From assembly GCA_965539945.1 (NCBI GenBank), contig CBETWD010000003.1:1-41986 (forward strand): DNA of 41,986 nt, written 5' to 3'. The first letter of the stretch is position 1. Every line of letters begins with the position of its first letter. Source of the DNA: an uncultured bacterium (GTDB taxonomy: Bacteria; Desulfobacterota; Dissulfuribacteria; Dissulfuribacterales; UBA3076). Under the pieces are notes generated by a model that had not been told where the DNA came from, ran no database searches, and saw only the letters and a list, made by a program, of their open reading frames with translations. Both the position numbers and the translations under genes were made by a program. Shown here piece by piece: positions 1,174 through 19,838 of this stretch.

Positions 1174-4100
1174 TTAGCCATTACCGGTCCCCGAGTTACT
1201 CTTTGGAAAATTGCTTAAGTCTCCCGGGGCCGACACGCCGCAGATCAGGCCTGAAACCGGTAAGTGGATGAACCCGCCCAGGCACCTCTTGCCGGTTGCT
1301 CTAGCTATGGCCTGGATGTAGGCCTGAAGTTGCCCGGCATAGCCTTGGGCGTGTTCCACGGCCTGCTTACGATCACCGGGGAAGGCCTTGTGGTCGATCA
1401 CTGCAAACCCGTCGTCTGTCATGACAACCAGATCGGCAAATCCGCGCATCACAGTTCCTCCGGGCAAGCGATGAAAAATGGGCCACTCCGGATGCATCTC
1501 GGCCCCAGGCCAGCGTTGTCCGAGCCAGGCATGCAGGGCGTCGTTGGCTGCCACCATCTCTTCGGGTTTGAGGGCCTGCGGGATATGCCAACGGTTCAGC
1601 ACCTGCCGGGCCAAAGTAAGGCGCTCATTACGGTCCCAGGTAGTGCGGTCCGCGGCCAGGAAGGTGTGCAGGACCTCACCCAGTTCCAGCGGTTCGGCTT
1701 GGCCCGTCAGGGTCATCCTGGGTCCCAGCTCTATCTCCTCGGTAATAACTCCCAGTCCTTCTGCGGACGAGGGTGAAACAAAGGCCGGAGGATACTCTCT
1801 TGGTCCTGATGCCTGGTAATCGGAACCAGGCGAGTCCTTTACCTCGGAGGGAAGTGCCGGCTCCAATTCGCGGATCACGCAGTCCAGCTTGATGCCCGCC
1901 CAATTTACCGCCCCATCCCTGGGTTCGTTGAGCAACGGCTGAGCCTGCTCGCTTAAAAGGGCCAAGAGCCCGTTGCCAAATTTGTTGGGTGGACCGGCCA
2001 AAATAAGACGATCTCTTGCCCTTGTCCAACCCACGTACAACAGTCTTAACTCCTGCTGCTTTTCACGCTCATTCCGGTACAGGTAATTTTCGCTGGACAA
2101 TATGCGATCGCGGAATGGTATATTGTTTTTGCTCTTACCGTACGGGTAAGGCCGGTAGCGCACCCAGCGGTCGGCAAGAGGAGCGCTGACATCAAAGCCA
2201 TCCTCTCTGCCCATGACCACCACCCCGTCAATCCTGGCTTCGTAAGTCTTGTCCAGTTGGTGTAATACTGTAATCGGCCATTCCAGGCCCTTTGCAGCAT
2301 GCCAGGTGGAAATCGTCACTGCGTCGCGCCCCGGGTCCAGCCCCTGGCTGTCGGCTCCTTCAGACTGCAAATCAGCCAGGTAGTCAACCAACCCCGCTGT
2401 TGTGACACCGGCTCCTTCTGCCGAGGCCGAGTTTGCATAGACATGGCAATGACCACGCAACGCCTCCAGATTGGCAAGTCGGGCCTCGGTTTTGCCCCAG
2501 GCATGGCAGTAGTCTCTGACACCAGTGGCCTCAATCACCATATCCAGAGCGGTCACAGGTCCTGATGTAGGATTTTCGCTGGCCAACCTTTGCAGGTCAG
2601 CTACTTGGGGTAACGAGAAAAAGCATTCTGCGGATTTTGATTGGAGCAAAGCGGACAGCCATTTATCGGGCTGGTCGGAGTAGTGGATGAGCCTTGCAAT
2701 TTCGGAAGCTGCCAAGGTGTCCTTAGGATCAACCCAGAGCTTGAGACCGGCAAGAACCACCAAACCTTCCGGCATGGACATAAGACCGGGACGGGCGATC
2801 TGGGCCTGTATGCCGTGACATACCAAATAATCCGTCACCAGTTGACAGACGTCATTATTACGGCACAAAATGCCCACGTCTTGAGCACGGGCTTGACGCG
2901 TTGCCTTTGTGGTTTGATCACGTACCTTTACCGTCTTGTCATCCAGGAATTCCGCTACGCCTACAGCCACGGCGGAAGCCTGAGTATCTTTACTCTGCCG
3001 GCGGTCTCCGCTGCCAAGCACCCATCGCTCTAAAACAGGTCCCAGGTCCGGGTCGTCATCATCATGGGCAGGCTCCAAACGTACCAGATCTTCCCGGATG
3101 CCGTAGGCTGAAAATGCACGAGAAAATACCTCGGAGGTCAGCCTCACAAGAAATGGCCTGCTACGCCACGACCGATTAAGCGTTTCGACATTGTCACCCT
3201 TTGTCATGGCTTTCAAACAGGCATCCATGAGTGCCGAATCGGTCCCCCTGAAGGCATATATGGATTGCTTCTGGTCACCAACCCATACGGCCCTGCCGCA
3301 GGCTTCTGCCAGCTTGAGGAATATGGCCAGTTGGATGGGGCTGGTATCCTGGAATTCGTCAACCAGCAGAAGGTCCGATTCCTGGGAAAGGCGATCTATG
3401 ACTTTCGGGCGATTGAGCAGATCAAGGGCCAATGATTCCTGGTCCGCAAAGTCCATGGCCCCTCGCTGGCGCTTGTATTCCTGGTAATCCTCCAGGCCCT
3501 GGATCGCTAAATCGAAAACCAGTTCAATGGCCCTGCGCATGTCGTGGCGGAGACCAGGGTGGTTATCATGCGCGTGCCCGGCCGCTCGCACTTGGTTTAG
3601 CAAATCGTCGGATTTCTTGCCGGCCCTCAGTGTGCTGAGCTTTACCCAATTCGCCCACGTAAGATCCTGCCCCCCTTGCATTGTGTTGAGTAACTGTCCG
3701 GCAATGGACACAGTTTTATCTGTTGTTTTGGTGGTGTCGGCATCTTGGTCAACGTTGTTTAGAAAGGACTGGAGTGCGTCCTCCAATTGCGATTCAAGAG
3801 TTTTTTTGTCCTTTACCCGATCTCCGAAATGGCTGAGACAGGCATCCACACTGCGTACCCGGCAATCAGAGAGATCTTCCGGCCCCAAGCCGTTAGACCG
3901 GGCGGCTTCGACCAGGTTGCGCACAGCTCCCATCCAGTCGAATTCTACGAACCGCCGTTTAAGACCGGCGAGTTCTTTTTGAGTTTCCACAGTCAAGGTC
4001 GCATCAAGTGATCGCCCCAATTGCAGGCGTGATTGCTCTTCGTCCAGTATGGTTATGTCTGGAAATAACCCAAGATCAAAGGCAAAATCCTTGAGGATAC

Positions 4101-6959: not shown

Positions 6960-8153
6960 CTATTCCCGCACTTTAGCGCATGGAATCAATCCTTTTTCCC
7001 GCGTCAAAAGGATAAAAAACAAGATCCCGGCCGTCATTATCGTTGCCCCTAAGGAAAACGCGCTCCTGAGACCACAATAATCCATTATAATACCGGCAAA
7101 AAAAGAACCGAGCATCATTCCCAGACTGTGCCCCACTGTCAAAAGTCCCATGATTGACCCCATGGATTCGTTTTCATTACCTTTTATCACAGACAGCGCC
7201 ATCACCGGCGGTGTTGATAATCCGCCTCCCACTCCAAAAAGAATGTCCGCGATAATGATATCCCAGAATCCCTCTGCCCATGAAAATGAATATGTTGCAT
7301 ATGCGATTATCAGACAGCCGGATATAATCATGTACCTTTTGTTTAGCTTGTCAGCCAGTAAGCCCATCGGGACCTGCAGCATACCGCTTATACATACTCC
7401 GAGCATGACAAGAATCCCGATCAAAGAACTTGAAAACCCGAATTCTGAATCCGCGTAAACAGGCAGGAAACACCATATGATTCCAATGCAGATTATATAG
7501 GAAAACCGGACGATGAACAGCCCTGCTATAACCCTGTCCCTTAATAGCCTGGTAATCGACACCGGAGCCTTATCCTTCCAGACAATCCTTTCCGAACTAA
7601 CAGGCGGCAGTAAGAAAAAGCTTAAAAAGCAGCCTGCAGCCGCAAAAATCCCCATGGCCGCAAAAGCTGAATTCAGGCTGAATTTGTCATTGATCACTCC
7701 GCCTGCCAGAGGGCCAATACTCAGGCCCAGAAACATTGACAGGTTAAAAAGACCCATATAAAAGCCCTCTTTCCCTTCAGGCGTGATATCTCCGATATAG
7801 GCCTGTGCAACCGGCATGATCATGGCAGACGCAATACCCTGTAAAAATCGTACGACAATCAATGAATTGACATCGGCTGAAAACATGAATGCAATGGAAA
7901 CCAATGTATAGCCAAGCAGGCCTGCGACAATAAACGGCTTACGCCCTTTTTTGTCTGAAATCCTGCCGAAATACGGAAGGAGAAATGTTCGTGAAAGGGA
8001 AAATGCGCCGAAGATCAGACTGATATACAGACCGCTGGCTCCAAGATCATGGGCATACACCGGCAGAAGCGGGACTACTATCCCCACGCCTGTAACAGAC
8101 GTAAAAATGGAAAAGAAAATAGTAGCAAATATTTTTTTGTCAGATGAATTCAT
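6960..8153 (-). CDS. MFS transporter (DHA1-like)
   Basis: About 12 hydrophobic segments, motif A GRISDKKGRK, and RFLQGIASAM. Confidence 0.92.
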   Translation of the reverse strand: MNSSDKKIFATIFFSIFTSVTGVGIVVPLLPVYAHDLGASGLYISLIFGAFSLSRTFLLPYFGRISDKKGRKPFIVAGLLGYTLVSIAFMFSADVNSLIVVRFLQGIASAMIMPVAQAYIGDITPEGKEGFYMGLFNLSMFLGLSIGPLAGGVINDKFSLNSAFAAMGIFAAAGCFLSFFLLPPVSSERIVWKDKAPVSITRLLRDRVIAGLFIVRFSYIICIGIIWCFLPVYADSEFGFSSSLIGILVMLGVCISGMLQVPMGLLADKLNKRYMIISGCLIIAYATYSFSWAEGFWDIIIADILFGVGGGLSTPPVMALSVIKGNENESMGSIMGLLTVGHSLGMMLGSFFAGIIMDYCGLRSAFSLGATIMTAGILFFILLTREKGLIPCAKVRE

Positions 8154-8253
8154 ATGGAAGAGGAAAAGGGAAAGCCATTTCCTAATCCTTCTATCCGATT
8201 GGACTTGAGCTTTTCAGGATTCTTGATGCACCTCGTAGCGGTCAAGTTCCCAT

Positions 8254-8619
8254 TTATTCATGGGTTCTTACCGCTATGGCAGTGATGGTTCGATCTTCGT
8301 CGAATCGACTGCCAATATTGATCTCGGTATCCATTTGGGTGGTAAACCTCTTTTCGATGATCAGCGCATTCGCTCCTCGGGAGGCTGCCTCTTTTTGCAT
8401 CATCTGAAGCAATTGAGCCCAGGGATGGTTAAAATCGCCATCGGCAGTGACCCACCCGATCTCCTCGTATTTTATATCCGTGGGCGGGGTCGTATATATT
8501 TTCACCGGACCTTGGTAGGGTGGATAAACTTTTCCGGTGGGAGCAAAATTCACCCTTGCACAGCCACAGAAAATAAGGCTGACCAATATCAATACAAATA
8601 CCGCTTTTCCCCTTTTCAT
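8254..8619 (-). CDS. Lipoprotein with YbjQ-like/heavy-metal-binding-type fold
   Basis: Signal peptide with lipobox FCGC; YEEIGWV and KEAASRGANALI; GGAGG RBS upstream. Confidence 0.7.
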   Translation of the reverse strand: MKRGKAVFVLILVSLIFCGCARVNFAPTGKVYPPYQGPVKIYTTPPTDIKYEEIGWVTADGDFNHPWAQLLQMMQKEAASRGANALIIEKRFTTQMDTEINIGSRFDEDRTITAIAVRTHE

Positions 8620-8715
8620 CTTTACCTCCTTTCAGCCCGATGACACTAAGTTGTGGTCTATCTTCCTGCTTATCATTTATCACGTTCTCAGCTACTTTAC
8701 CATAATTAAGGCAAG

Positions 8716-8749
8716 TTTAATCCACAGATTTCGCAGATTACACCGATTA
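8716..8749. repeat. 9-bp tandem repeat (CACAGATTT/CGCAGATTA/CACCGATTA) overlapping the rnhA stop
   Basis: TCCACAGATTTCGCAGATTACACCGATTA; the final TTA (8747-8749) is the rnhA stop codon on the minus strand. Confidence 0.75.
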
Positions 8750-9226
8750 CTCTAATCTGCCTGTTCTGTCCTCTTCCAGACCTCCTGCCTGGCCTTCGGA
8801 AATGGCTTCCCTGGCCAGTTGATCAGCCAGTTCATTTTCCTCGTGTCCGGCATGACCCTTGGTCCATTCCCAGTGAACCTTGTGAAATTGACACAAAGAG
8901 TCAAGTGCCTGCCATAGATCCTTGTTTTTAACAGGCTTTTTGGCGGCAGTCTGCCACCCTCTGCGCTTCCATGCAGTTATCCACTCGGTTATACCCTGTT
9001 TTACGTATTTGGAGTCGGTGGTGATAATCACATCGCAGGCCCTTTTAAGGGCCTCAAGGGCCCGTATTGCTGCCAAGAGTTCCATCCGGTTGTTTGTGGT
9101 GTTTTTTGACCAGCCCTTGATGCACTTTCTTTGTTTGTCATACTGCAACATTGCCCCCCACCCACCGGGCCCAGGGTTTCCGGAGCAGGCACCATCAGTG
9201 AATATATGGACTATAATTGGCATCAT
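8747..9226 (-). CDS. rnhA: Ribonuclease HI
   Basis: [51 protein letters not shown]. Confidence 0.97.
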
Positions 9227-9375
9227 TCATTCACCAGTTTACACTTTCTTCAAAAAAACGCGCACTATCGAATTGAATGCCGAGGTCGAAACTGGAAATT
9301 CGAAATTCGAAATTAGGTAACGCATTTAAATCTTTATATTTTTCCCAATTTCAAATTTCAAATTTCAAATTTCGC
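9214..9375. repeat. Intergenic element with inverted GAAATTC/AATTTCA heptamer arms; partial second copy at 38111-38183
   Basis: GTCGAAACTGGAAATTCGAAATTCGAAATTAGGTAACGCAT is identical at both loci, and TTCATTCACC(A/G)GTTTACACTTT is also shared. Confidence 0.85.
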
Positions 9376-9383
9376 TATTAAAA

Positions 9384-10094
9384 CTATTTTCGCCCTGTAT
9401 ATAGTGTAACAATACCCATTGTCAGAGGTCTGTGCTTAACCTCTCGAAATCCCACATCTCTCATCATTGCGTCCAGGACCTCAGGTTCATAGAAGCTCTG
9501 AATGGAATCTGCCAGATAGCGATAGGCCTCTTTGTCGCCTGAGATAATGCCGGCCATAAAGGGGAGGAGTTTGTGAAGATAGAATTTGTATATCGGAGAA
9601 AAAAGGCGGTTCTTCGGACGCGAGAATTCGAGAATCGCAAGTTTCCCCCCTGTTTTCAGCACCCTTAACATCTCTCTGAGGCCCTGTTCCGGCCGGCTGA
9701 GATTCCTGACTCCAAAGGCTATTGTTATTCCTTGGAATTTCAAGTCATGGAGTGGCAAGTACTCTCCGTCACCGCATATGGGGACTATATATTTTGCCTT
9801 CTTGCTGCCATTTTCCAATTGAAGCGCCCCATGCCGAAGCATCTCATAACAGAAATCCACTGCCACCACCGGGCGCGCTATCTGCCTCACAATTTCAGCC
9901 GAAAGGGGCATGGTTCCGGCGCAGAGGTCCAGGATGGGGCCTTGTTTGAACTCATCAAACTCTCGCGTGGTTACCCATCTCCAGTAGTGGTCTATATAAA
10001 AACTTAGCAACTTGTTTAAGAGATCATATCTCCTTGAAACAGAGGCGAATTTGTCCCGGACAAAGCGCTTTTTCTCATTTCCTGTTGGTATCAT
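9384..10094 (-). CDS. menG: Ubiquinone/menaquinone biosynthesis C-methyltransferase (UbiE/MenG)
   Basis: FASVSRRYDLLNKLLS, ILDLCAGT, IAFGVRN, LEFSRP, AYRYLADSI. Confidence 0.93.
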   Translation of the reverse strand: MIPTGNEKKRFVRDKFASVSRRYDLLNKLLSFYIDHYWRWVTTREFDEFKQGPILDLCAGTMPLSAEIVRQIARPVVAVDFCYEMLRHGALQLENGSKKAKYIVPICGDGEYLPLHDLKFQGITIAFGVRNLSRPEQGLREMLRVLKTGGKLAILEFSRPKNRLFSPIYKFYLHKLLPFMAGIISGDKEAYRYLADSIQSFYEPEVLDAMMRDVGFREVKHRPLTMGIVTLYTGRK

Positions 10095-10104
10095 TATTTA
10101 TGGG

Positions 10105-10193
10105 CGTTCACGGTTCTGGGTTCAAAGGTTCTGGGTTCAAAGGTTCTGGGTTAGCTGATAGACTGATAGGAAAGCTGATAGACTGATAGGAAA
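10105..10193. repeat. Tandem GGTTCTG/GGTTCAAA array followed by a 20-bp direct repeat
   Basis: GGTTCTGGGTTCAAA repeated, then AGCTGATAGACTGATAGGAA twice. Confidence 0.85.
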
Positions 10194-10363
10194 TCGCTTT
10201 TTGCGATTTGGACTGAAACAGCACTTCCAGGCACCACACACTGACTTCTATAGCACTTTTGGAAGCTGCAGTGCGCTTTTCACCAAATATGTGCATTTTC
10301 TTAAGACCGTTAACATGACTTTCTGCTTAAACAAAGCAAACCTCAAAAAAAATATTTTCTAAC

Positions 10364-10379
10364 AGCAAATACCGTGCCA
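10364..10379 (-). promoter_or_regulatory. Sigma-54 (-24/-12) promoter facing menG
   Basis: Minus strand reads TGGCACGGTATTTGCT, an exact fit to TGGCACG-N4-TTGCW. Confidence 0.75.
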
Positions 10380-10390
10380 TTATCGGGCTC

Positions 10391-10453
10391 GTCCAACAAA
10401 CGGTTCAGATTGTGGTTTGCTCCGCTCACACAATCTAACCTTATTCGTTCTAC
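10391..10453 (-). mobile_element. Integron attC site (63 bp)
   Basis: Minus strand: R'' GTAGAAC ... GGTTAGATTGTG/CACAATCTGAACC palindrome ... R' GTTGGAC. Begins 12 bp after the stop of the zinc-ribbon gene. Confidence 0.85.
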
Positions 10454-10465
10454 CTGTCGATCATT

Positions 10466-10798
10466 TCACAGTTCTTCAATTAGCTTGTAATACTCCTTGA
10501 GAGTATGAATGGATTCCATCGTGCTTTGAAACAAGATCCAACTGAGAACAAGGATGCCTATTGTGAGTCCGATCTTCCATGCCCGCGTCGTTTGTGGACG
10601 CCACCAAATCAGGGGCAACGCCAGAGGCCCTATACAACAGACTGCGATGGCAATAAAGGATTTTCGGAAATACCATTGAATCTTTTCCTCTACAAAGCTT
10701 TGGTGGTTGGAGGTATCCAGAAACTCACCGCAGTGTTTACACTTTATCGCATCGTCTTGAATTTCTTCAGCGCAGAAGGGACACCTTTTCATTATCAT
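10466..10798 (-). CDS. Gene cassette: zinc-ribbon membrane protein
   Basis: CPFCAEEI...CKHCGE plus two transmembrane segments. Start placed at ATG 10798 (or 10792) because the longer ORF begins inside the attC. Cassette ends GTTCTAC and GTAGAAC are complementary. Confidence 0.85.
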   Translation of the reverse strand: MIMKRCPFCAEEIQDDAIKCKHCGEFLDTSNHQSFVEEKIQWYFRKSFIAIAVCCIGPLALPLIWWRPQTTRAWKIGLTIGILVLSWILFQSTMESIHTLKEYYKLIEEL

Positions 10799-10806
10799 CT
10801 CTCTTG

Positions 10807-10894
10807 GTAGAACGACCAGCATCACCAGCCGCGCCGGGATGCCTGATAGAAGTTAGCGTGCTGTTCGCGGTCTGCGTGAATGCGATTGTTAGCG
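10807..10894 (-). mobile_element. Integron attC site (88 bp)
   Basis: Minus strand: R'' CGCTAAC, L'' CATTCAC, stem CAGACCGCG/CGCGGCTG, L' GTGATG, R' GTTCTAC. Confidence 0.88.
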
Positions 10895-10949
10895 CTTGTA
10901 ATTGCTTTGTGAACCCAATAAGCAACTTCTTGAGATGATGTATGTTTTG

Positions 10950-11321
10950 CTATGTTGCTTGCAAGTTGTAAGGTTTTATTAGAATTTCAGCCGATATACC
11001 TAAACCATTTTGAAGTTTTCTTATCATAGTGATGGACAGGGACCTTTTTTTGTTTAAAATTTCTGACACTCGTGCCCTTGAGCCAATAAGTGGTATTAAG
11101 TCTTTACGGGATAGCCCCTGACTTTCCATTTGATGAATGATGGCTTCTACTGGTTCAGGTGGAAGTATTGGATGATGTTTTTCTTCGTATGCCTCTATTA
11201 AGGTAACCAATACATCAAGTTTGTCTCCTTCAGGAGTGTCTTTTTGAGCACTCATCAAATTTTCAACTTCTTGTAAAGCTGCATTGTAGTCAGTTTCTGA
11301 TTTAATAGGCTTGATATTCAT
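10950..11321 (-). CDS. higA: HigA-family antitoxin (cassette-borne)
   Basis: IKPIKSETDYNAAL, LVTLIEAYEEKH, IGSRARVSEILNKKRSLS. Confidence 0.92.
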   Translation of the reverse strand: MNIKPIKSETDYNAALQEVENLMSAQKDTPEGDKLDVLVTLIEAYEEKHHPILPPEPVEAIIHQMESQGLSRKDLIPLIGSRARVSEILNKKRSLSITMIRKLQNGLGISAEILIKPYNLQAT

Positions 11322-11329
11322 ATATCACC

Positions 11330-11623
11330 TCATATTGTTGTTGCATCAATTTTGTCATAAGCCTCATGGCTACCAACAAAGCGGATATAAATAATTCCGA
11401 AGTCATAATTAATTGCTGTCACGAGACGATATGTGTTGCCTTTTATGTTGAAAATAACTCGATTATTAGCAACAAAGCTGGCATTTCTATAATCGATTTT
11501 TATGTCGTTTGAAGTTTTCCATTCTGCTAATTTTACTTTTGCATGCCATGACTTTAAAGGTTGTTCAGCATCTGCATGGATTTTCCAAAATTCTCTTAAT
11601 GTCTTTTTTGAAATTATCCTCAT
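11330..11623 (-). CDS. higB: HigB-family mRNA interferase toxin (cassette-borne)
   Basis: MRIISKKTLREFW, RVIFNIKGNTYRL, IRFVGSHEAYDKID; toxin-first gene order. Confidence 0.93.
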   Translation of the reverse strand: MRIISKKTLREFWKIHADAEQPLKSWHAKVKLAEWKTSNDIKIDYRNASFVANNRVIFNIKGNTYRLVTAINYDFGIIYIRFVGSHEAYDKIDATTI

Positions 11624-11702
11624 GATATAGAGTATAGCCTGCTACCATTTTGGGATCAAGCTTTATTTTTGATGTGAGTCAGGAAGTACATTTTTGAGGC
11701 GC

Positions 11703-11905
11703 GACGCGGTAGGACGGCCAGTTACCCGACCGCCCCCGCACAGATCCCGGCGTGCGGAATTACCGCACCGGGCTCCTCAGTGATACTCGCTTCCGTAATC
11801 AGCAAAGACAATCCAAAAACCATATCTTGCCGGCCCCACGTTTATCGAATATCCGAGGCCTGGGCACATTGAACCTCTTTAACATCTCCTTGAATCCCTT
11901 CCAAA
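11703..11905 (-). mobile_element. Group II intron 3' remnant (maturase C-terminus, domain V, domain VI); not class IIC, probably bacterial class E
   Basis: D5 GAGCCCGGTGCGGTAATTCCGCACGCCGGGATC with AGC triad; D6 GCGGTCGGGTAACTGGCCGTCCTACCGCGTC; 11903-11799 translates WKGFKEMLKRFNVPRPRI...CLC*, resembling a maturase domain X end. Confidence 0.9.
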
Positions 11906-12014
11906 TGCGCCGAGATGGATTAGGGCGCTTCGAAATTTTGGATTTTTGCCGCAAGTTCAACAGGGTTGCTCTGCCTGCTAGGTTTGTCTCCGAAACAAAT
12001 CCTTCAATTTCATA

Positions 12015-12938
12015 TCACAATTTCCTCAATGACTGATGACCAATGTCGTCGGCAGGCAACATTTTCAACTCCGATATCCTGGGAAAACCACCGCGATCAT
12101 GTAGCAGCCTGAAGAAATGGAGCAGACCCTGCTGCTTTTTTTCTGAAAGATCGAGTTCTATGCCCTTAAGATATCCCAGACAGTCTGATGAGGTCATTGG
12201 TATCTTGTGGGCAACCAGATTACTTATACGTTCGAGTTCAATCAGGCCCTTGTGATAGCATTCGCTGAGGCGCTTATGGAGGAGACGAATTTTTTCCGGC
12301 CATGCAACCCAGATTTCTTCTCTGATGGCCCATACGGCAAATACAAAAGGCAGACCTGTATGGTCCAACCATATTTTGGCTAGATCCGACCGGAATAGAT
12401 TATCAGTGTTAGATCGCAGCCTCAGGGCCTCGTCCCCTATGGCGAGGTAGGCCTGGGCCACGGGATTTACCGACAGTTCCTTAAAATTTCCTGTCCTGAA
12501 TATGGGTCTCATTCCTAAAAAGTCTTCAAGTATTATATGCAAAAGGTTGACGGATGTTGCGGATTGAGGAGTTAATAGCACAAGTTTTTCATTGAGTTCT
12601 TCAATTGGGACCTTGCTGAGAAGGATCACGCTCCCCACAGGGCCGGTAGCACTTATACTCAGGTTTGGCAATATGTAGTATCTGTCTGCATTGAGGCCGT
12701 ATGCATAGGAGGAAACAATACCCGCATCCAGTTTCCCCTGGGCCAAATGGCTGTTCAAAAAGGTGGGCGGGCCCTCTTCCACCACCCATCCATTGAGAGG
12801 ACCCATTTCCTGCCAGGGGACATAGATCGGCGAGGTATTAATAAAGTTCACAATGCCCAGTTTGGCATACTGAATATTGCCGGCCTCCAACCCCTTTTTC
12901 ATTCCGGATTTTACCTCTTCAATCACCAAATCACCCAA
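12015..12938 (-). CDS. mqnA: Chorismate dehydratase MqnA (exact start uncertain)
   Basis: LGIVNFINTSPI, GPPTFLN, ISATGPVGSV, SATSVNL, LAIGDEAL, TGLPFVFAVW; lies in the mqn cluster. Confidence 0.9.
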   Translation of the reverse strand: MGDLVIEEVKSGMKKGLEAGNIQYAKLGIVNFINTSPIYVPWQEMGPLNGWVVEEGPPTFLNSHLAQGKLDAGIVSSYAYGLNADRYYILPNLSISATGPVGSVILLSKVPIEELNEKLVLLTPQSATSVNLLHIILEDFLGMRPIFRTGNFKELSVNPVAQAYLAIGDEALRLRSNTDNLFRSDLAKIWLDHTGLPFVFAVWAIREEIWVAWPEKIRLLHKRLSECYHKGLIELERISNLVAHKIPMTSSDCLGYLKGIELDLSEKKQQGLLHFFRLLHDRGGFPRISELKMLPADDIGHQSLRKL

Positions 12939-12957
12939 TCACCAAATCACCCAATCC
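12920..12957. repeat. 8-bp tandem repeat (AATCACCA/AATCACCC) at the deaminase-mqnA overlap
   Basis: CAATCACCAAATCACCCAATCACCAAATCACCCAATC; same unit at 37129-37167 and 38905-38950. Confidence 0.9.
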
Positions 12958-14217
12958 CCTGCATCCTTCATGGACAAGGAATTCCAGGATATCTTTATTG
13001 CCAATGGGACCCGACTCTACTGCCAAAAATGTTGCGGCTTTGCCCCTGGCCAGACTCCCCAATTCTTCAGAGATACCAAGGGCCCTTGCTCCACCATAAG
13101 TGCCTGCCCTGAAAATGGCCTCTGGAGGAAGACCGGGGGCCAGCTTTGAAAGGCTTGCCATTTCGGCGAAGATGGAAAGCCGGTCGTTGCTTGCAAGGCT
13201 ATCTGTACCAAGGGCCAATGGTATGCCTGAAGCATGAAGCTCTTCCACAGGAGCCACACCCACTCCAAGGAATACATTGCTCCTGGGACACAGACAAACG
13301 CCAGCCCCTGTTTTTGCCAGGATTGAGATGTCATCCCGGTCCACCTGGACACAGTGAACACAGACAGTATGCCTATCAAGTAGCCCCAAGGTTTCAAGAT
13401 ACCTCACAGGAGACGCTTTGGGGAGATCATAATTCAAGGGCCAGTGTCCTTTTTCTTTTAAGAGTTCTATTAGGGGACCCTGCCTACCTTGCAGGAACTC
13501 TATCTCCTCTTCTGATTCAGCCACGTGAATGGGAAACGGCATGCCATGGCTCTGATCCCATGCCTTAATGGCTTTAAGGACCGTCGGCGCCACAGAATAC
13601 GGGGCATGGGCGGAAAAGGCATAGCGAAAAGATGGCCCCAAGATGTCCATGGGTTCAGGAACTTTTTCATTTACAAAAAGGGGGCTGAGAGGGATTTCTT
13701 CCTCCGCTCCATTCGGTATCGGGCATACCAGTTCTTGAAAGAAGACGCCCCTGAAAGGCCATGTGCCATCTTTTTTGGAAGAAAAAAGCGGGATAACATC
13801 CAGATTTCCCACGTCTCCAACGGCAATTATCCCGTTTTTTTGCATCTCTTTTATCGCCTGACATATGGCCGGTTCCCATTCTTCAGGCCTGATCAGGTCG
13901 CGGGCCTCAATAAGCGCTCTTACCCAGTCAACAAAGGAACCGCTTGGAGAAAGACGCCACCTGAGGGGAGAGAGTTCAAGGTGAGAGTGGGTATTTATCA
14001 GGGCGGGACAAAGTATGGAGTCTCCATAGTCTTTTATCTCTGCCTGATAGCTTGCGCGGAGTTCCGATGCCGGTCCTACCCCTACTATTTTTCCTTCAAA
14101 GGTCGCTATTGCCCCATTTTCTATTGGAGGCCTTGAGACAGGAACCACCCATCTGGCTATGTGAAGATGGAAAGAACTTGGTGATTTGGTGTAGGGGTTC
14201 AGAGGTTCAGGGTTCAC
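12931..14217 (-). CDS. Amidohydrolase, probable aminodeoxyfutalosine deaminase
   Basis: INTHSHLEL, HAPYS, IHVAES, VHCV, LCPRSN, LGTDSLAS; lies between mqnC and mqnA. Both termini are repeat-derived. Confidence 0.8.
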   Translation of the reverse strand: MNPEPLNPYTKSPSSFHLHIARWVVPVSRPPIENGAIATFEGKIVGVGPASELRASYQAEIKDYGDSILCPALINTHSHLELSPLRWRLSPSGSFVDWVRALIEARDLIRPEEWEPAICQAIKEMQKNGIIAVGDVGNLDVIPLFSSKKDGTWPFRGVFFQELVCPIPNGAEEEIPLSPLFVNEKVPEPMDILGPSFRYAFSAHAPYSVAPTVLKAIKAWDQSHGMPFPIHVAESEEEIEFLQGRQGPLIELLKEKGHWPLNYDLPKASPVRYLETLGLLDRHTVCVHCVQVDRDDISILAKTGAGVCLCPRSNVFLGVGVAPVEELHASGIPLALGTDSLASNDRLSIFAEMASLSKLAPGLPPEAIFRAGTYGGARALGISEELGSLARGKAATFLAVESGPIGNKDILEFLVHEGCRGLGDLVIG

Positions 14218-14527
14218 CGTTCAGGGTTACCTTTCTGTAAGGGTTCAGAGGTTCAGAGGTTCAGGGTTCACAGGTTACATTGAAAGATGAACGTCGAACA
14301 TCCAACATCGAACGTCCAACGTCGAATGAAAAACAAATATCCAATACCGAACACACAACAGCTATTTCTATTTCTTCATCTTTTTCTTGACCCTTGCCCC
14401 CTGACCCTTGCCCCTCTGAACCCATGTTCTGTTTCTTCATCTTTTCCCATTCAAAATTCGATGTTGGACGTTCGATGTTCGATGTTCATCTTTTTTCTTG
14501 AACCCTGAACCCATTAACCCATTAACC
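14195..14527. repeat. Nested repeat element A, copy 1 (outer GGTTCAG/CTGAACC arms, inner AACATCG/CGATGTT arms)
   Basis: Core GAATGAAAAACAAATATCCAATACCGAACACACAACAGCTATTTCTATTTCTTCATCTTTT recurs inverted at about 18.76-18.82 kb. Confidence 0.92.
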
Positions 14528-15586
14528 GGATTCTCCAACTAAACTATAGTCCATCAGGCGCTGACGCGGTTCAAAGCCTGCATCGGTAACAATTCTACGT
14601 ATTTCTGCTTCCGAGAGTCGATGACTCACCCCGGCTGCTGCGACCACATTTTCCTCAATCATTGTGCTGCCAAAGTCATTTGCCCCAAAAAATAAGGCAA
14701 TCTGGGCCACTTTGGGACCTTGTGTGACCCATGAGGCCTGAAGATTCGGGAAGTTGTCAAGGACAATCCTGGCGATGGAAAGCAGTCTCAAATATTCCTG
14801 TCCGGTAGATGGCCTGACGTCAAGAGCGGTATTTTTGGGTTGAAAGGGCCAGGCAATAAAGGCTGTGAATCCGTTGGTGCGGTCTTGAAGGTCTCTAAGG
14901 CGTAAAAGGTGTTCAATTCTTTCCTCCGGTCGCTCCACGTGGCCGTACATCATAGTGGCAGTGGTCTTAAGCCCTAATTCGTGGGCAGTCTCCATTACAT
15001 TCAGCCACTCATCTGTTGTGGCCTTCCGTGGGGAGATCTGCTTTCTTACTCTGTCTGTCAGGATTTCCGCTCCACCGCCCGGGATGGAATCGAGTCCGGC
15101 CTTGATAAGCCTGACCAGGACCTCTTTTATAGACAGACTGGAAATATTGGCAAAGTGAACGATCTCAGGAGGAGAAAAGGCATGGCAATGGATTGCAAAA
15201 CCGTCTTTTATAAAAGAGAGCATTTCCTCGTAGAAAGTAAGGGGGAGATCAGGATGGAGCCCGCCTTGCAGCAGGATCTGTGTACCCCCAAGTGATTTTG
15301 TCTCCTCTAACTTCTCAGCCAGTTCTTTCCAGGAGAGTACATAGCCTGAAAGGTCACCCGGTGCGCAGTAATAAGCGCAGAACTTGCAACCGGAGATGCA
15401 TATATTGGTATAGTTAATGTTCCGGTCTATGACATATGTGACAATGGGTTTTGGATGCAGCCTTTGCCTTACTTCGTCAGCAAGTTGGCCCAGAATATTC
15501 AGGTCTGCCTCTTGATAAAGCAAGAGGGCATCATCTCCTGAAAGGCGCCTGCCGGCCCGGACCTTTGATATTATCGGATCAATCAT
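14522..15586 (-). CDS. mqnC: Cyclic dehypoxanthine futalosine synthase (radical SAM)
   Basis: DRNINYTNICISGCKFC, LLQGGLHP, QASWVTQG, GANDFGSTMIEENVV. Confidence 0.95.
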   Translation of the reverse strand: MIDPIISKVRAGRRLSGDDALLLYQEADLNILGQLADEVRQRLHPKPIVTYVIDRNINYTNICISGCKFCAYYCAPGDLSGYVLSWKELAEKLEETKSLGGTQILLQGGLHPDLPLTFYEEMLSFIKDGFAIHCHAFSPPEIVHFANISSLSIKEVLVRLIKAGLDSIPGGGAEILTDRVRKQISPRKATTDEWLNVMETAHELGLKTTATMMYGHVERPEERIEHLLRLRDLQDRTNGFTAFIAWPFQPKNTALDVRPSTGQEYLRLLSIARIVLDNFPNLQASWVTQGPKVAQIALFFGANDFGSTMIEENVVAAAGVSHRLSEAEIRRIVTDAGFEPRQRLMDYSLVGESG

Positions 15587-15600
15587 GGTGAAAAATGAGC

Positions 15601-16686
15601 TCAGACCGGCTCGTAGAGAGTGTCGCGCTCTACAGGCTTTCTCCCTGCCTGTCGGATAAGGTGCTCGATCTCACCACGGGTCATGGCCTGGGAGGTATCC
15701 GCCCCTGCCATGTGCGTAATCTTTTCTTCCAGCACAGTCCCGTCCAGATCATCCGCACCAAAGGACAGGGCGATCTGCGCAACTTTTGGCCCAAGCATCA
15801 CCCAATAGGCCTTGATATGTGAAAAGTTATCCAGCAGGAGTCGTGATACTGCAATACTCTTAAGATCATCCACCCCGCCTGTGGATGACAGGTATTCCAG
15901 TTTTGTATTCTTGGGGTGAAAAGCAAGAGGTATGTAACACAGAAATCCGCCTGTCTCGTCCTGGGCCTCTCTCAGGGCCAGCAGATGCTCTATCCGTTCA
16001 GATATTGTCTCAATATGGCCGTAGAGCATGGTGGCATTGGTCCTGAGACCTGCTCTATGGGCGGTTTTAGCAACTTCCAGCCAGTCCTTCCCAGGGAGCT
16101 TACCAGGGCAGAGCTTTTCCCGTATTCTGGTGCTGAAGACCTCTGCTCCGCCTCCGGGAATGGACCCCAGGCCGGCCTGCATAAGACCTTCCAATGTCTC
16201 GGCAATTGACTGACCCGAAATGGCTGCCAGATGGGCTATCTCTACACAGGTAAAGGCCTGGATATGGATCTCAGGTCTTTCAGCCTTTATGGCCTTCAGC
16301 ATGTCAATATAATACCCATAAGGGAGATCCGGGTGCAGGCCGCCGACAATGTGTACCTCTGTGACGGGTTCGGCATGCCTTTCCCTTATCTTGGAGACTA
16401 TCTCTTCTATGGACATTTCGTAGGCCTTCGGGTGGGTCTTTTCCTTTCCGAAGGCACAGAATTTACACAGATTTATACAGATATTAGAATAGTTTATGTG
16501 CTGATTATAGATATAATAGGCTTGGTTTCCGTTAAGCCTTTCTCTTACCATATTAGCCAGATAACCAAGGGCCGGCAGATGAGTAGTGGAGAAGAGCAGT
16601 TCTCCATCTTCAGCGCTTAAGCGAGTGTCGGACAGGATCTTTTCGTATATTTCAAAGAGTCCTGCTTCTTTAAGGGCTTTTTCCAT
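15601..16686 (-). CDS. mqnE: Aminofutalosine synthase (radical SAM)
   Basis: NYSNICINLCKFC, EVHIVGGLHP, HIKAYWVMLG, FGADDLDGTVLEEKITHMAG. Confidence 0.95.
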   Translation of the reverse strand: MEKALKEAGLFEIYEKILSDTRLSAEDGELLFSTTHLPALGYLANMVRERLNGNQAYYIYNQHINYSNICINLCKFCAFGKEKTHPKAYEMSIEEIVSKIRERHAEPVTEVHIVGGLHPDLPYGYYIDMLKAIKAERPEIHIQAFTCVEIAHLAAISGQSIAETLEGLMQAGLGSIPGGGAEVFSTRIREKLCPGKLPGKDWLEVAKTAHRAGLRTNATMLYGHIETISERIEHLLALREAQDETGGFLCYIPLAFHPKNTKLEYLSSTGGVDDLKSIAVSRLLLDNFSHIKAYWVMLGPKVAQIALSFGADDLDGTVLEEKITHMAGADTSQAMTRGEIEHLIRQAGRKPVERDTLYEPV

Positions 16687-16756
16687 AGTTTGCAGTTACC
16701 TTTACCCGGTTTAATCAAGAGGGAAGAAAGGTGGTGTTAGAAGGTTATTTCCTTTT

Positions 16757-16822
16757 TTAATTCAAAATTCAAAATTAAGAACTCAAAATTGTGTCTGAAC
16801 GGCCTTTTCGTTCAGGCACTAA
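16757..16822. repeat. AATTCAA heptamer arm plus 11-bp-stem hairpin abutting the slyD stop; second copy at 38259-38325
   Basis: CAAAATTGTGTCTGAACGGCCTTTTCGTTCAG(G/A)CACTAAT at both loci. Confidence 0.88.
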
Positions 16823-17289
16823 TTATCCTTTTGCGTCGTGGTAATGCGCACGTCTTTTACAAATACTTCAAAATGCAGGGTCTTGCCGGCCAGGGGATGG
16901 TTAAAGTCCAGCATCATGGCGCTTTCCCATATGGACTTGACAATAGCTGGTTGTCTTAAGCCAAATTCGTCAGGGGCCTTGACTACCTTGCCCACCTCCA
17001 CTTCTCCTGAAATTCTTTCAATGGCCACCAGTGATACCTTCCCGGGATCATAGCGCCCATAAGTGTAGTTTGGAGGGACAAATATTACCTTTCTTTCTCC
17101 AGGAGCAAGCCCGACAATATTTTCCTCAACAGGTTTTGGGAAATTACCCTTTCCGCATACAAAGGTTACCGGTCCCCCCGTCTTTTCAGAGGAATCCACT
17201 ACTTTTCCCGTGGATAGCCTGACCTGGTATTCCATTTCCACCAGTCTTCCATGTTCTACACGGAGTAGGACCTTTTTTGTAATATCCAT
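16819..17289 (-). CDS. slyD: FKBP-type peptidyl-prolyl isomerase (SlyD-like, no His-rich tail)
   Basis: VVDSS, PVTFVCGKG, YGRYD, LDFNHPLAGKTLHFEV. Confidence 0.85.
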   Translation of the reverse strand: MDITKKVLLRVEHGRLVEMEYQVRLSTGKVVDSSEKTGGPVTFVCGKGNFPKPVEENIVGLAPGERKVIFVPPNYTYGRYDPGKVSLVAIERISGEVEVGKVVKAPDEFGLRQPAIVKSIWESAMMLDFNHPLAGKTLHFEVFVKDVRITTTQKDN

Positions 17290-17296
17290 GGTTGCT

Positions 17297-17719
17297 TCAA
17301 TGACCCTTTGTAGAGGTTTTTTCCGGTACTGGAATTTTCATAAAGGAAATTCCTTCTTCCTTCAAAGTTTTTTCTTCCTCTGGTGTAGCAACACCTCTTA
17401 TGTTACGGTTTTCAGTCACACCGTAATGTATCTTGAGGGCCTCTTGCGCAAATGCCGTTCCTACGTCTTCTGTATTTTTTTCCACCACAGTGTAGATCTT
17501 ATTCAGCATCTCATTCAAGACAGCTTCCGAGGTGTCCCCGTCTTTGCCGACGGACCTGGTGCATACTGCAACTGCAGAGGGAGTTTTCCGGACATTATTA
17601 CTACCACAGACAGGACAAATCAGCAGACCCCTCTCCTTCTGTGTCTCAAACGCCTCCCCATCTTGAAACCAGGCTTCAAAGGTATGATCTTGATCGCAAC
17701 GCAAATCAAAGGCTATCAC
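17297..17719 (-). CDS. DUF1178 family zinc-ribbon protein
   Basis: MIAFDLRCDQDHTFEAWF, CPVCGS, EDVGTAFAQEALKIHYG. Confidence 0.9.
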   Translation of the reverse strand: MIAFDLRCDQDHTFEAWFQDGEAFETQKERGLLICPVCGSNNVRKTPSAVAVCTRSVGKDGDTSEAVLNEMLNKIYTVVEKNTEDVGTAFAQEALKIHYGVTENRNIRGVATPEEEKTLKEEGISFMKIPVPEKTSTKGH

Positions 17720-17793
17720 AATGTAAAATTGATAACATTTTGTGAATGGAAACGCAATCCGAACCCCTGAGCATGAAAATTAATTACTCAAAA

Positions 17794-17832
17794 TCAATCA
17801 CGAAAACACGAAGGTACGAAAACACGAAAAAA
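17794..17832. repeat. CACGAAAA-type 8/9-bp tandem repeat
   Basis: ATCACGAAAACACGAAGGTACGAAAACACGAAAA; the inverse TTTCGTGTTTTCGTGATTG occurs at about 34729-34747. Confidence 0.7.
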
Positions 17833-17908
17833 CAAGGCTGGATGAACCTCAAAAAATACTTTAATATTCGGACAAGGTATTGTTTTGTAGTTGAATGGAG
17901 GCCTAATT

Positions 17909-18613
17909 ATGCACAATGTGCGTTTATTTTACCTTTTGTTAGTTATAGTTATGGTATTTACTTTTGCTTCGAAGTCCCTGGCAGGAGGTCTTTCAGATCG
18001 TGGAAAAGATCTTGTGTCCCTGTTACAGAAAAAATACGAAACCACCACTGATATTACCTCTAACTTCGAGCAGGAGACGTTTGCTACCGGTTCTTCAGAG
18101 GGTCTCAAGGCAAAAGGAAAGGTCTATTTCAATCGTCCACACCAGATGCGCTGGGAATACAGTCAACCGGAACCGCAGCTTATTGTCACCAGCGGGCAAG
18201 AGGTATATGTGTATGAGGAGGAAGCCAATCAGGTAATGGTGCTTCCCAGGGATCAATTACTTTCAACTGAGATAAGCAAGGCCTTTTTTTTTGGAAAAGG
18301 TGACCTCAAGCGTTTTTTTATTGTAGAGCATCCTGTAGAAGGCCAACCGGATGCCAGGTGGATGCTGAAGCTTACCCCAAGGAATCCGGTACCGCAGGTA
18401 TGCACCATATGGATTGTCGTAGATTCTGATACCCATCTGGTAAAGGAGATGTGGCTGGAAGACCAGTTAGGTGGCAGGACACATCTTGTATTTAGCAATG
18501 TCAAGGTCAATAAAGGCCTTTCAGACGATCTTTTCCGGTTTGTTCCACCTCCAGGTGTGGAAATCTACCGTACAGATGATTCTGAGGTTCTAGGTTCAGA
18601 GGTTCAGGGTTGA
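17909..18613 (+). CDS. lolA: Outer-membrane lipoprotein carrier LolA
   Basis: Signal peptide, FEQ, GKVYFNRPHQMRWEY, FRFVPPPGV; GGAGG RBS before ATG 17909. The C-terminal SEVLGSEVQG* is repeat-derived. Confidence 0.9.
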   Translation: MHNVRLFYLLLVIVMVFTFASKSLAGGLSDRGKDLVSLLQKKYETTTDITSNFEQETFATGSSEGLKAKGKVYFNRPHQMRWEYSQPEPQLIVTSGQEVYVYEEEANQVMVLPRDQLLSTEISKAFFFGKGDLKRFFIVEHPVEGQPDARWMLKLTPRNPVPQVCTIWIVVDSDTHLVKEMWLEDQLGGRTHLVFSNVKVNKGLSDDLFRFVPPPGVEIYRTDDSEVLGSEVQG

Positions 18614-18903
18614 GGGTTCAAGAAAAAAATGAACATCGAACATCGAACGTCCAACATCGAATGTTGAATGGGGAAAAATGAAGAAACAGAACATGGGTTC
18701 AAAGGGGCAAGGGGCAAGAAAAAAATGAACATCGAACGTCCAACATTGAACATCGAATGGGAAAAGATGAAGAAATAGAAATAGCTGTTGTGTGTTCGGT
18801 ATTGGATATTTGTTTTTCATTCGATGTTGGACGTTCGATGTTCGATGTTGGACGTTCATCTTTCAGTACAACCTGTGAACGGTGAACCCTGAACCTTTGA
18901 ACG
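18580..18903. repeat. Nested repeat element A, copy 2 (inverted relative to copy 1, with an extra AACATCG arm)
   Basis: Near-identical to 14195-14527 on the opposite strand; both translate to the spurious MKNKYPIPNTQQLFLFLHLF. Confidence 0.92.
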
Positions 18904-18923
18904 TCTACAATCAGGAGAACAAA

Positions 18924-19838
18924 ATGTCCAATGAAAGTTTAGCTGAAGAAATCCGTGCATTGGCACAGGAAAAAAACGCTATCATTCTTGCTCACAATTA
19001 CCAGGTGCCGGAGGTCCAGGATATTGCGGACCTTACCGGGGATTCTCTGGCCCTGAGTATCCAGGCATCAGAGACCGAAGCCGATATCATAATATTTTGC
19101 GGAGTCCGTTTTATGGCTGAGACCGCGGCCATTGTTTGTCCGGATAAAAAAGTAATACTGCCTGTTAAAGAGGCAGGCTGTGGTATGGCGGATATGCTGA
19201 ACGCCGCGGAGCTGATGGCTGAGAAAGCAAAGTATCCAGGCGTGCCTGTGGTCACATATGTGAATTCTACAGCCGAAGTAAAGGCGGAAAGCGATATCTG
19301 CTGTACCTCAGCCAACGCGGTGCAGGTCGTTAAATCCTTAAAGACTCCTGAAGTCCTTATGACCCCGGACAAGAATCTGGCAATGTGGGCACAGAGACAC
19401 ACAGATCAAAAAGTCCATTACTGGCTTGGTTACTGTCCAATTCATGATGATCTCACAGTTGCCCAAGTCAAGGAGGCGAAAGCCGCTCACCCCGAGGCCT
19501 TGCTGATGGCCCATCCCGAGTGCCTTCCAGAGGTGCTGGACATGGCGGATGCGGTAAGAAGCACCAGCGGCATGCTGACCTTTGCAGCAGAATCCAAGGC
19601 AAAGGAATTCATTGTTGCCACAGAGATCGGGCTTTTACATCCGTTGAAAAAGCAAAATCCAGGAAAGAAATTTTACGCTGCTTCTCCTGAGATGGTCTGT
19701 ATAGACATGAAAAAAACAGGCCTGAAGGAGGTGTTGCAGGCCCTTCAGACAGAAGGGCCTGTGATTATTGTGCCCGAACCGATTCGTTTAAAGGCCCTCA
19801 AGGCTGTTGAACGTATGATGGCCGTGCCGCGGGACTGA
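18924..19838 (+). CDS. nadA: Quinolinate synthase
   Basis: ILAHNYQ, FCGVRFMAE, AGCGMA, YVNS, CCTSANA, CPIH, AHPEC, CIDMK; AGGAG RBS before ATG 18924. Confidence 0.97.
   Translation: MSNESLAEEIRALAQEKNAIILAHNYQVPEVQDIADLTGDSLALSIQASETEADIIIFCGVRFMAETAAIVCPDKKVILPVKEAGCGMADMLNAAELMAEKAKYPGVPVVTYVNSTAEVKAESDICCTSANAVQVVKSLKTPEVLMTPDKNLAMWAQRHTDQKVHYWLGYCPIHDDLTVAQVKEAKAAHPEALLMAHPECLPEVLDMADAVRSTSGMLTFAAESKAKEFIVATEIGLLHPLKKQNPGKKFYAASPEMVCIDMKKTGLKEVLQALQTEGPVIIVPEPIRLKALKAVERMMAVPRD

Follow-up and report, generated by a model that had tools for sequence, protein, structure and literature searches.

How did the 3′ end of a group II intron come to lie directly in front of a higBA gene cassette in an uncultured member of the Desulfobacterota, and what kind of site had its parent intron recognised? 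The window (the whole stretch of 41,986 nt that was analysed) carries, on its minus strand, a short segment that resembles intron domains 5 and 6 and is followed at once by GCGC. The original prediction held that it belonged to an intron lineage other than the IIC-attC introns, inserted in an integron core split as GTTA^GCGC and read in the same direction as the cassettes. Here, that observation is confirmed and its interpretation is supported: we put at roughly 0.8 the probability that the intron sat between GTTA and GCGC at the start of the higBA cassette, that its lineage homes by means of EBS1, and that this copy was later truncated.

As read from the sequence, the remnant extends from 11904 to 11703 on the minus strand and preserves 34 C-terminal codons of the intron protein together with domains 5 and 6 and the intron 3′ terminus. 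The reverse transcriptase/maturase tail (11799..11903, minus strand; codons 11903->11802, TGA stop at 11801-11799) translates as WKGFKEMLKRFNVPRPRIFDKRGAGKIWFLDCLC* and was recognised by homology to two relatives. It is identical at 26 of 34 positions (76%) to residues 412-445 of P0001, a 445-aa group II reverse transcriptase/maturase (TIGR04416, 327 bits against a cut-off of 300), and shows 75% identity to residues 131-170 of L044, a fragment from a genome of the same order. Next come the 3′ arm of domain 4 with the linker to domain 5 (11777..11798, minus strand), for which the relatives have homologous sequence, and domain 5 itself (11742..11776, minus strand), with an AGC triad (A11774, G11773, and C11772), a G.A opposition, an AC bulge, and the 5-nt loop UAAUU. 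Domain 6 (11705..11740, minus strand), joined on through a UGU linker, has a GUAA loop and a bulged branch-point adenosine, A11710. The intron closes with UC (11703..11704, minus strand), placed by an alignment of 32 sequences, so that its 3′ terminus reads ...CUACCGCGUC at C11703. The penultimate base, T11704, is A in the other 31 of the 32 aligned sequences; the L044 and L047 copies carry the same T.

Across these 32 sequences, the window row included, the fold of domains 5 and 6 has 28 pairs, 15 of which show compensatory changes. The opposed G and A in the triad helix of domain 5 are invariant (32/32), and the idea that they mark a defect of this copy was dropped. The features by which group II introns are recognised are therefore present in the part that survives, namely a domain 5 with the triad and a 2-nt bulge, then a domain 6 with a bulged A, together with a reverse transcriptase/maturase encoded in domain 4, of which the last 34 codons are left. 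A complete ribozyme is absent: domains 1-3 and the 5′ GUGYG are missing, and intron homology begins at 11904, inside the protein tail. Rfam gave no match at the locus, either at gathering scores or with E-values up to 10, and no D1-D4 model matched anywhere in the window; a whole-genome search with RF00029, the model of domains 5 and 6, returned matches elsewhere in the genome and none at the remnant. The cut-off of that model was reached by five of 11 relatives. The identification is thus based on homology and structure, with Rfam silent, and on these grounds the element is confirmed as a group II intron tail, with the AGC triad that had been noted in it.

The surroundings of the remnant show what the intron stood next to. 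The 3′ exon starts with GCGC (11699..11702, minus strand; 11702->11699), which directly abuts the intron end at C11703. It is followed by a promoter-like TTGATC-17-TATACT, noted by eye, and by higB (11330-11623, minus strand; PF09907 at 4e-30) and higA (10950-11321, minus strand; HTH_3), a gene pair (10950..11623) whose GC content is about 0.33 vs 0.45-0.5 in its surroundings. The higBA cassette is closed by attC-1 (10807..10895, minus strand), which was recognised by its boxes and by a bottom-strand fold with single-base bulges (z -1.2). Its R'' box is GCGCTAAC at 10895->10888, exactly the cassette ending that had been noted, with the spacer AATCG; L'' is CAT[T]CAC[G]CAG[A]CCGCG, with three extrahelical bases, and L' (CGCGGCTGGTGATG), the spacer CTGGTC, and R' (GTTCTAC) complete the site. 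The next cassette begins TTCTAC, encodes a zinc-ribbon protein (10466..10792, minus strand; ATG at 10792), and is followed by attC-2 (10391..10453, minus strand), whose boxes are R'' GTAGAAC, L'' GGTTAGATTGTG, L' CACAATCTGAACC, and R' GTTGGAC and whose fold scored z -1.8 and -1.95. The z-scores of the attC folds are modest (-1.2 to -1.95).

The first bases of an integron cassette are the complement of the cassette's own R'' box. This rule is obeyed within the array, where the tail of the attC-1 R' box, TTCTAC, is the exact complement of GTAGAA in the attC-2 R'' box. With two attC sites downstream that conform to it, the predicted insertion in an integron core finds support, and so does the predicted co-orientation, since the intron, the attC top strands, and the genes all lie on the minus strand. 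No integron integrase was found among 16 open reading frames scanned at 6960-19838; a match to TIGR02249 above its cut-off lies on another contig (C88) of the same genome.

The array resembles a small cluster without an integrase, set among core genes. In a genome of the same genus (L048), both flanks are kept at 92-94% identity (window 8207-10271 and 11904-14190) and the DNA between them is unrelated; the region 10272-11903 is thus a variable insert between core genes. Upstream of the flank, 12015 is the last position of a minus-strand mqnA-like gene that belongs to a futalosine-type menaquinone operon. The run of futalosine-pathway genes (12015-16686, minus strand) includes a VitK2_biosynth/MqnA-like gene, an amidohydrolase gene, and two radical SAM genes of the CofH/MqnC type, and it stands directly upstream of the cassette cluster, although attC sites do not usually have such genes as neighbours. 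At its distal edge, the variable region carries a conserved module (window 10120-10271, minus strand; 2611-2702 and 4218-4309 in L048), which consists of a promoter-like TTGACC-17-TATAGA whose -35 element is missing in the window copy, followed by GTTTCAGTCCAAATCGCAAAAAGCGATTTCC, which includes a small palindrome, and then by runs of octamers of the CTATCAGC type and three repeats resembling CCCAGAACCTTTGAA. Its 92-nt core is present twice in L048 and has no match in Rfam.

Since the attC site of the higBA cassette begins GCGCTAAC, the cassette should start (G)TTAGCGC. The GCGC at the intron boundary is the RRRY part of such a core, split as GTTA^GCGC, and matches the complement of the cassette's own R'' box, 807 nt downstream, over 4 nt. 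We infer the GTTA half in the window rather than see it, the 5′ half of the target being gone.

Of 69 genomes of the order that were scored, which include the window's own (G000), 10 others matched the intron part of the remnant at 83-96% identity, and 11 order-level copies were examined for the same relation. A clear R'' match is present in the window and in two further copies: in L041 the 3′ exon begins GCCT and matches the cassette's own R'' box, AGGCTAAC, over 4 nt, and in L044 it begins GCAGG and matches CCTGCTATC over 5 nt, with the same AATCG spacer after the box. A weaker match of 3 nt only is seen in L039 (GGC against GCCAAAC, followed by AATAG), which keeps both intron ends, in the form ...CCGGTC GTTC / GUGCGCC...GCGAC / GGC. 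For L043, a 5-nt match lies far downstream and may be due to chance; L047 has too little downstream DNA for the comparison, and in five of the 11 copies (L040, L042, L045, L046, and L021) no R'' match was found. In L039 (2178-2318), the R'' box of an upstream attC (GCGCAAAAC) can pair with GTTC plus the first intron bases, GUGCGC, so that the displaced R' half may have a substitute in the intron 5′ end.

The L044 copy continues upstream into an open frame that includes the X domain and a RGYYNYYG-type maturase motif. Searches for an intact protein closer to home gave little: the window's own genome (92% complete, 317 contigs) gave no match to GIIM (PF08388), and a search of the 69 genomes of the order with the 170-aa fragment retrieved only the window's genome and G058 (2/69) and no full-length copy. 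A candidate for a fuller copy, G058:C75, was rejected as another small fragment. Several remnants in related genomes, such as L037 (G060:C79), L041 (G050:C235), L044 (G058:C156), and L042 (G041:C214), are broken differently, with domains 5 and 6 missing, domain 5 partly deleted, or the intron truncated in domain 4, and this variety suggests many independent decays in these arrays. Most of the related remnants lie just before toxin-antitoxin cassettes (RelBE, Phd/YefM, PIN, and HicB-like).

The 5′ limit of the remnant is sharp. The upstream flank (11904..11979, minus strand), recognised by homology to related genomes, is a conserved stretch of 76 nt downstream of the mqnA-like gene; its homology to the orthologous locus stops at 11904, where intron homology starts. 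The two share only T11904, a 1-nt overlap, and a 3-nt ATT microhomology considered for this point was rejected accordingly. The limit at 11904/11905 is therefore a true junction, at which codon 412 of the intron protein is joined to local sequence, away from the G^TT point of integrase crossover, a configuration that points to abortive reverse transcription or to deletion at a later time.

The flank itself was considered as an attC or attI site and rejected: a folding test of 11904-11979 gave no canonical attC fold, and the R'' box predicted from its GTTGCAC was not found in L048. The site invaded by the intron may thus have been an attC or another GTT site. The 76-nt flank recurs as a repeat at several contig ends in genomes of the same genus (L026, L036, L028, L038, and L048). 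Where it is intact in related genomes, it continues ACGTTGCAC...CTACCGTT for 45 nt further, at the place where the intron stands here; beyond CTACCGTT, the sequences of L038 and L048 part from each other in the manner of a recombination junction.

The surviving 201 nt of intron are fused, with the 1-nt overlap, to local conserved sequence. The copy has lost about 1.75 kb, which took in domains 1 to 3 and all but the 3′ end of the reverse transcriptase gene, and the upstream half of the target site is gone as well. The loss may have occurred by abortive reverse transcription during retrohoming or by later deletion. We infer that insertion came first and truncation followed. As had been suspected, this copy is inactive: without domains 1 to 3 and a reverse transcriptase, and with T for A at the penultimate base, it is incapable of splicing or moving, and it has no likely function. 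It survives as a fossil at the boundary of a cassette, which it marks.

A distinctly less probable account agrees on the nature of the element and differs only on where the truncation happened. It holds that the remnant came into this genome already shortened, as the 5′ leader of the higBA cassette, so that no insertion event took place here. The position of the insertion point, 3 nt inside the cassette, lends itself to this, because intron and cassette would form one movable unit; moreover, remnants precede unrelated toxin-antitoxin cassettes in several genomes, and L044 and L047 share the penultimate T of the window copy. The 5′ junction speaks against it, however, since a junction made by integrase would read ...G/TTA followed by the intron 5′ end, whereas codon 412 is joined here to local sequence, with an overlap of 1 nt and not at G^TT. 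We therefore favour insertion at the higBA cassette followed by truncation.

For the target habit of the lineage, full-length relatives were needed. Metagenome contigs searched with P0001, which itself comes from a contig of 2346 nt, yielded 80 loci with 51-62% protein identity; the 3′ end was recognised by its pattern in 50 of them, and the 5′ motif together with some exon was available in 28 as well. The 5′ exon ends in GTTN in 20 of these 28 loci (GTTA in 16, GTTG in three, and GTTC in one), against an expectation of 1 in 64; the remaining eight end in GCTA (twice) or in GTAA, GGTA, TCGC, TCTA, CTTA, or CCTA (once each). The first base of the 3′ exon is T or G in 45 of 50. Such relatives had been proposed as the way to examine the GTTA^GCGC reading, which their exon ends bear out.

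The intron side of the target recognition could be located as well. In a MAFFT alignment of domain 1, the reverse complement of at least the last five exon bases occurs at one and the same column in 22 of 29 rows, and the loop at that column is UAACG, which pairs with CGTTA, in 20 of 29. If G.U pairs are allowed, at least five contiguous pairs from the splice site are formed in 24 of 29 rows. Seven rows with other targets carry compensatory changes in the loop (target/loop): GCGTTG/CAACGC in L208, CGGTA/TACCG in L209, CGCTA/TAGCG in both L210 and L237, GTTCGC/GCGAAC in L215, ACTTCTTA/TAAGAAGT in L221, and TTCCTA/TAGGAA in L226. This single loop of domain 1 is EBS1, and the EBS1/IBS1 pairing that had been suggested as a check is found together with covariation. 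L039, the order-level copy with both intron ends, also carries UAACG. An early hairpin of domain 1 that holds UAAC was considered as EBS1 and dropped because it does not covary with the targets. A crude search for EBS2 in the relatives gave no consistent column, so that 5 to 7 bp alone appear too little for specificity.

If these targets are attC cores, an R'' box should follow downstream. The 8-mer predicted for each locus, made by complementing the four bases at the start of the 3′ exon and adding TAAC, is present downstream in 12 of the 32 loci with at least 400 nt of downstream sequence, compared with 177 of 8160 (2.2%) for controls in which all other 4-mers were used. The binomial P of 1.6e-12 is too optimistic, since loci of one clade are related. 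In matching loci, the complementarity spans 4 to 8 nt. A gene on the same strand starts within 150 nt in 21 of the 32 loci, and the downstream genes of the relatives include toxin-antitoxin genes and others. The last 100 nt of the 5′ exon fold moderately better than shuffled sequences (mean z -1.72, n=17), and the first 100 nt of the 3′ exon fold no better than shuffles (mean z -0.10, n=18).

These data also weigh on the view that both the GCGC match and its position are coincidental and that the lineage homes to ordinary sites, terminators, or the promoter regions of toxin-antitoxin operons. The match in the window covers 4 nt only, five order-level copies have no R'' match, L021 lies beside tRNA genes, and the targets of the sister clade are diverse, all of which such a view would accommodate. 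Against it stand the 5′ exons, 20 of 28 ending in GTTN where 1 in 64 is expected, the covariation of EBS1 with the target, the predicted R'' box, which is present in 12 of 32 loci (controls, 2.2%) and shows complementarity over 4 to 8 nt, and the fact that the downstream genes are not toxin-antitoxin genes alone. Coincidence is thus strongly disfavoured and, in our opinion, very improbable, and we retain homing to the attC core through EBS1 as the explanation.

The end pattern of domains 5 and 6 was found in more than 121 places in many phyla, the majority in a sister group whose 5′ end differs and in which about one of 17 plausible junctions ends in GTTN and the targets are diverse. By a quick maximum-likelihood phylogeny of 43 rows, with SH-aLRT as the sole support measure, P0001, the closest full-length protein, falls in a clade of 34 rows (SH-aLRT 100) that holds 20 GTTN rows, and the sister clade of nine rows has a single one. 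The reverse transcriptase phylogeny proposed earlier as a check thus places P0001 with the GTTN-targeting introns.

Among full-length introns of both clades, 10 of 11 score with RF02005 (group-II-D1D4-6). In the relatives, full introns measure 1912-2194 nt and ORF-less copies 646-750 nt, with ribozymes of about 600-750 nt, and the protein, as seen in the L044 fragment and in P0001, ends just after the X domain, without an endonuclease. An endonuclease-less protein combined with a ribozyme in the region of 450-700 nt is characteristic of classes IIE and IIF and is found in these relatives, as is the 5-nt loop of domain 5, another mark of IIE/IIF, which is UAAUU here and occurs throughout the alignment. 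Further marks of IIE/IIF are an alpha' carried at the tip of a DId3 stem-loop and an additional bulge loop; the window copy has no domain 1. P0001 is equally far from the solved IIC, IIA, and IIB enzymes (all near E 1e-35). Ribozyme size and the domain 5 loop speak against IIC, and the lineage looks IIE/IIF-like, an assignment set by the domain 5 loop, the protein, and the ribozyme.

It is accordingly hard to credit that the remnant is a fragment of an ordinary IIC-attC intron whose strand was misread. IIC-attC introns are, in the available text of two sources (PMC4424553 and PMC3001079), the textbook attC-targeting introns. Against such an identity, the minus strand carries domain 5, domain 6, and the protein tail, and it is also the strand of the cassette genes and of the attC sites read R''->R'; the 5-nt loop of domain 5 is described as a IIE/IIF oddity (PMC3753933, part available); the ribozymes of the relatives measure about 600-750 nt and match RF02005; and P0001 is no closer to the solved IIC enzymes than to those of IIA or IIB.

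Taken together, the sequence data show how such introns find their sites and suggest how they might use them. The lineage locates the target by pairing of EBS1, 5'-UAACG, with 5'-CGTTA of the R' core of attC, and inserts after the A, 3 nt beyond the point of integrase crossover, in the top strand and in sense to the genes. In the window, the insertion point would lie 3 nt downstream of the integrase crossover G^TT, just inside the 5′ end of the higBA cassette, and the direction of insertion would be that of the cassette genes. Endonuclease-less introns are generally held to use single-stranded DNA at replication forks (PMC4424553, in the text available to us), and the present lineage may do likewise. 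Because 5 to 7 bp are too little, the attC hairpin or the intron protein might add specificity. As the insertion point falls within the downstream cassette, transcription of that cassette would include the intron, which could splice out of the transcripts and would travel with the cassette when the latter is moved by integrase.

On balance, we think it probable that a widespread environmental clade of IIE/IIF-like, endonuclease-less introns has independently evolved homing to the top strand of attC R' boxes, by which an intron that pairs through UAACG with CGTTA settles 3 nt inside the downstream cassette, is cotranscribed with it, splices without silencing it, and is carried by it. If this is true, integrons and retroelements would have formed an alliance a second time and by a distinct mechanism, and decayed remnants would be markers of old cassette boundaries. 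The lineage predicts introns that do not block cassette expression and ride with cassettes, and it offers a short, programmable EBS1 rule for IIE/IIF, a class hardly studied for mobility. For annotation, remnants of this type account for odd GC-rich hairpins where cassettes begin and aid in locating cassette boundaries.

The known kind to which these introns belong is that of attC-homing group II introns, within which the intact relatives are a barely described lineage; beyond the accounts cited here, no other description of such attC-homing introns was found in a literature search. Reviews, in the portion of text available, list homing sites, terminators, and attC sites as the target habits of bacterial group II introns and credit the last two to class C only (PMC4424553). 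The class C introns of integrons were stated by Leon et al. 2010 (PMC3001079, available in part) to insert in the bottom strand, opposite to cassette transcription, as the original prediction had stated, and its proposal of a different lineage is borne out by both strand and position.

Group IIC-attC introns (S.ma.I2 and relatives; Leon et al. 2010, PMC3001079; Zimmerly and Semper 2015, PMC4424553) resemble the present ones in lacking an endonuclease and in homing specifically to attC. As far as the available text of these sources describes them, they differ in strand (bottom and antisense to the cassettes, compared with top and sense here), in class (class C with a small IIC ribozyme, compared with a IIE/IIF-like domain 5 and a larger ribozyme), and in position, the lineage here inserting 3 nt past the crossover in R'. 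A sense-oriented intron in an Enterobacter cloacae class 1 integron is mentioned as an 'unusual' IIC intron, a single case of class C (via the part of PMC7923331 available).

Closer parallels were reported by Sonbol and Siam 2021 (Mob DNA 12:8, PMC7923331), whose text was available in part. Two introns of Halorhodospira halochloris, H.ha.F1 and H.ha.F2, are 5′-truncated IIB-type elements with endonuclease-less class E proteins; like the remnant described here, they retain only domains 5 and 6 and part of the ORF, and they lie in an integrase-less attC cluster with toxin-antitoxin cassettes and attC-like structures upstream. A further intron, UHB.I2, is of CL1, has the orientation of the cassettes, and stands immediately after an attC; poor exon conservation was reported for it, and a role of the hairpin was speculated upon. 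The portion of that report available names no fixed insertion point, EBS1-R' pairing, or clade-wide habit. Compared with these three introns by description, the present lineage differs in its fixed GTTA^ insertion point, in an EBS1 mapped with covariation, and in the quantified cassette rule.

The class features were taken from Nagy et al. 2013 (RNA 19:1266, PMC3753933), in the text available of which IIE/IIF introns have a 5-nt loop in domain 5 instead of GNRA, a small IIB-like ribozyme (450-700 nt without the ORF), and no endonuclease domain, features that the present lineage shares. The EBS1-IBS1 pairing was found there to be crucial and EBS2 dispensable for splicing. The introns studied were homing-site introns, and that text mentions no integron target.

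Other group II introns were encountered in the course of the searches. At the Photorhabdus locus L077, considered as a class E reference, no ORF was found. On a contig of an Acidobacteriota MAG (L084/L085), an ORF-less sister-group intron of 750 nt is present in three head-to-tail copies; the three matches lie 750 nt apart, and each starts with GUGCGCC right after the preceding ...CGCGAC end. The genome of the window itself contains a second, unrelated, and apparently ORF-less group II intron (G000:C13, approximately 2400-3170; L009, about 800-1577), which scores 51.6 bits with RF00029, has a classical domain 5 with AGC, and is followed on the same strand by a small antitoxin-like gene.
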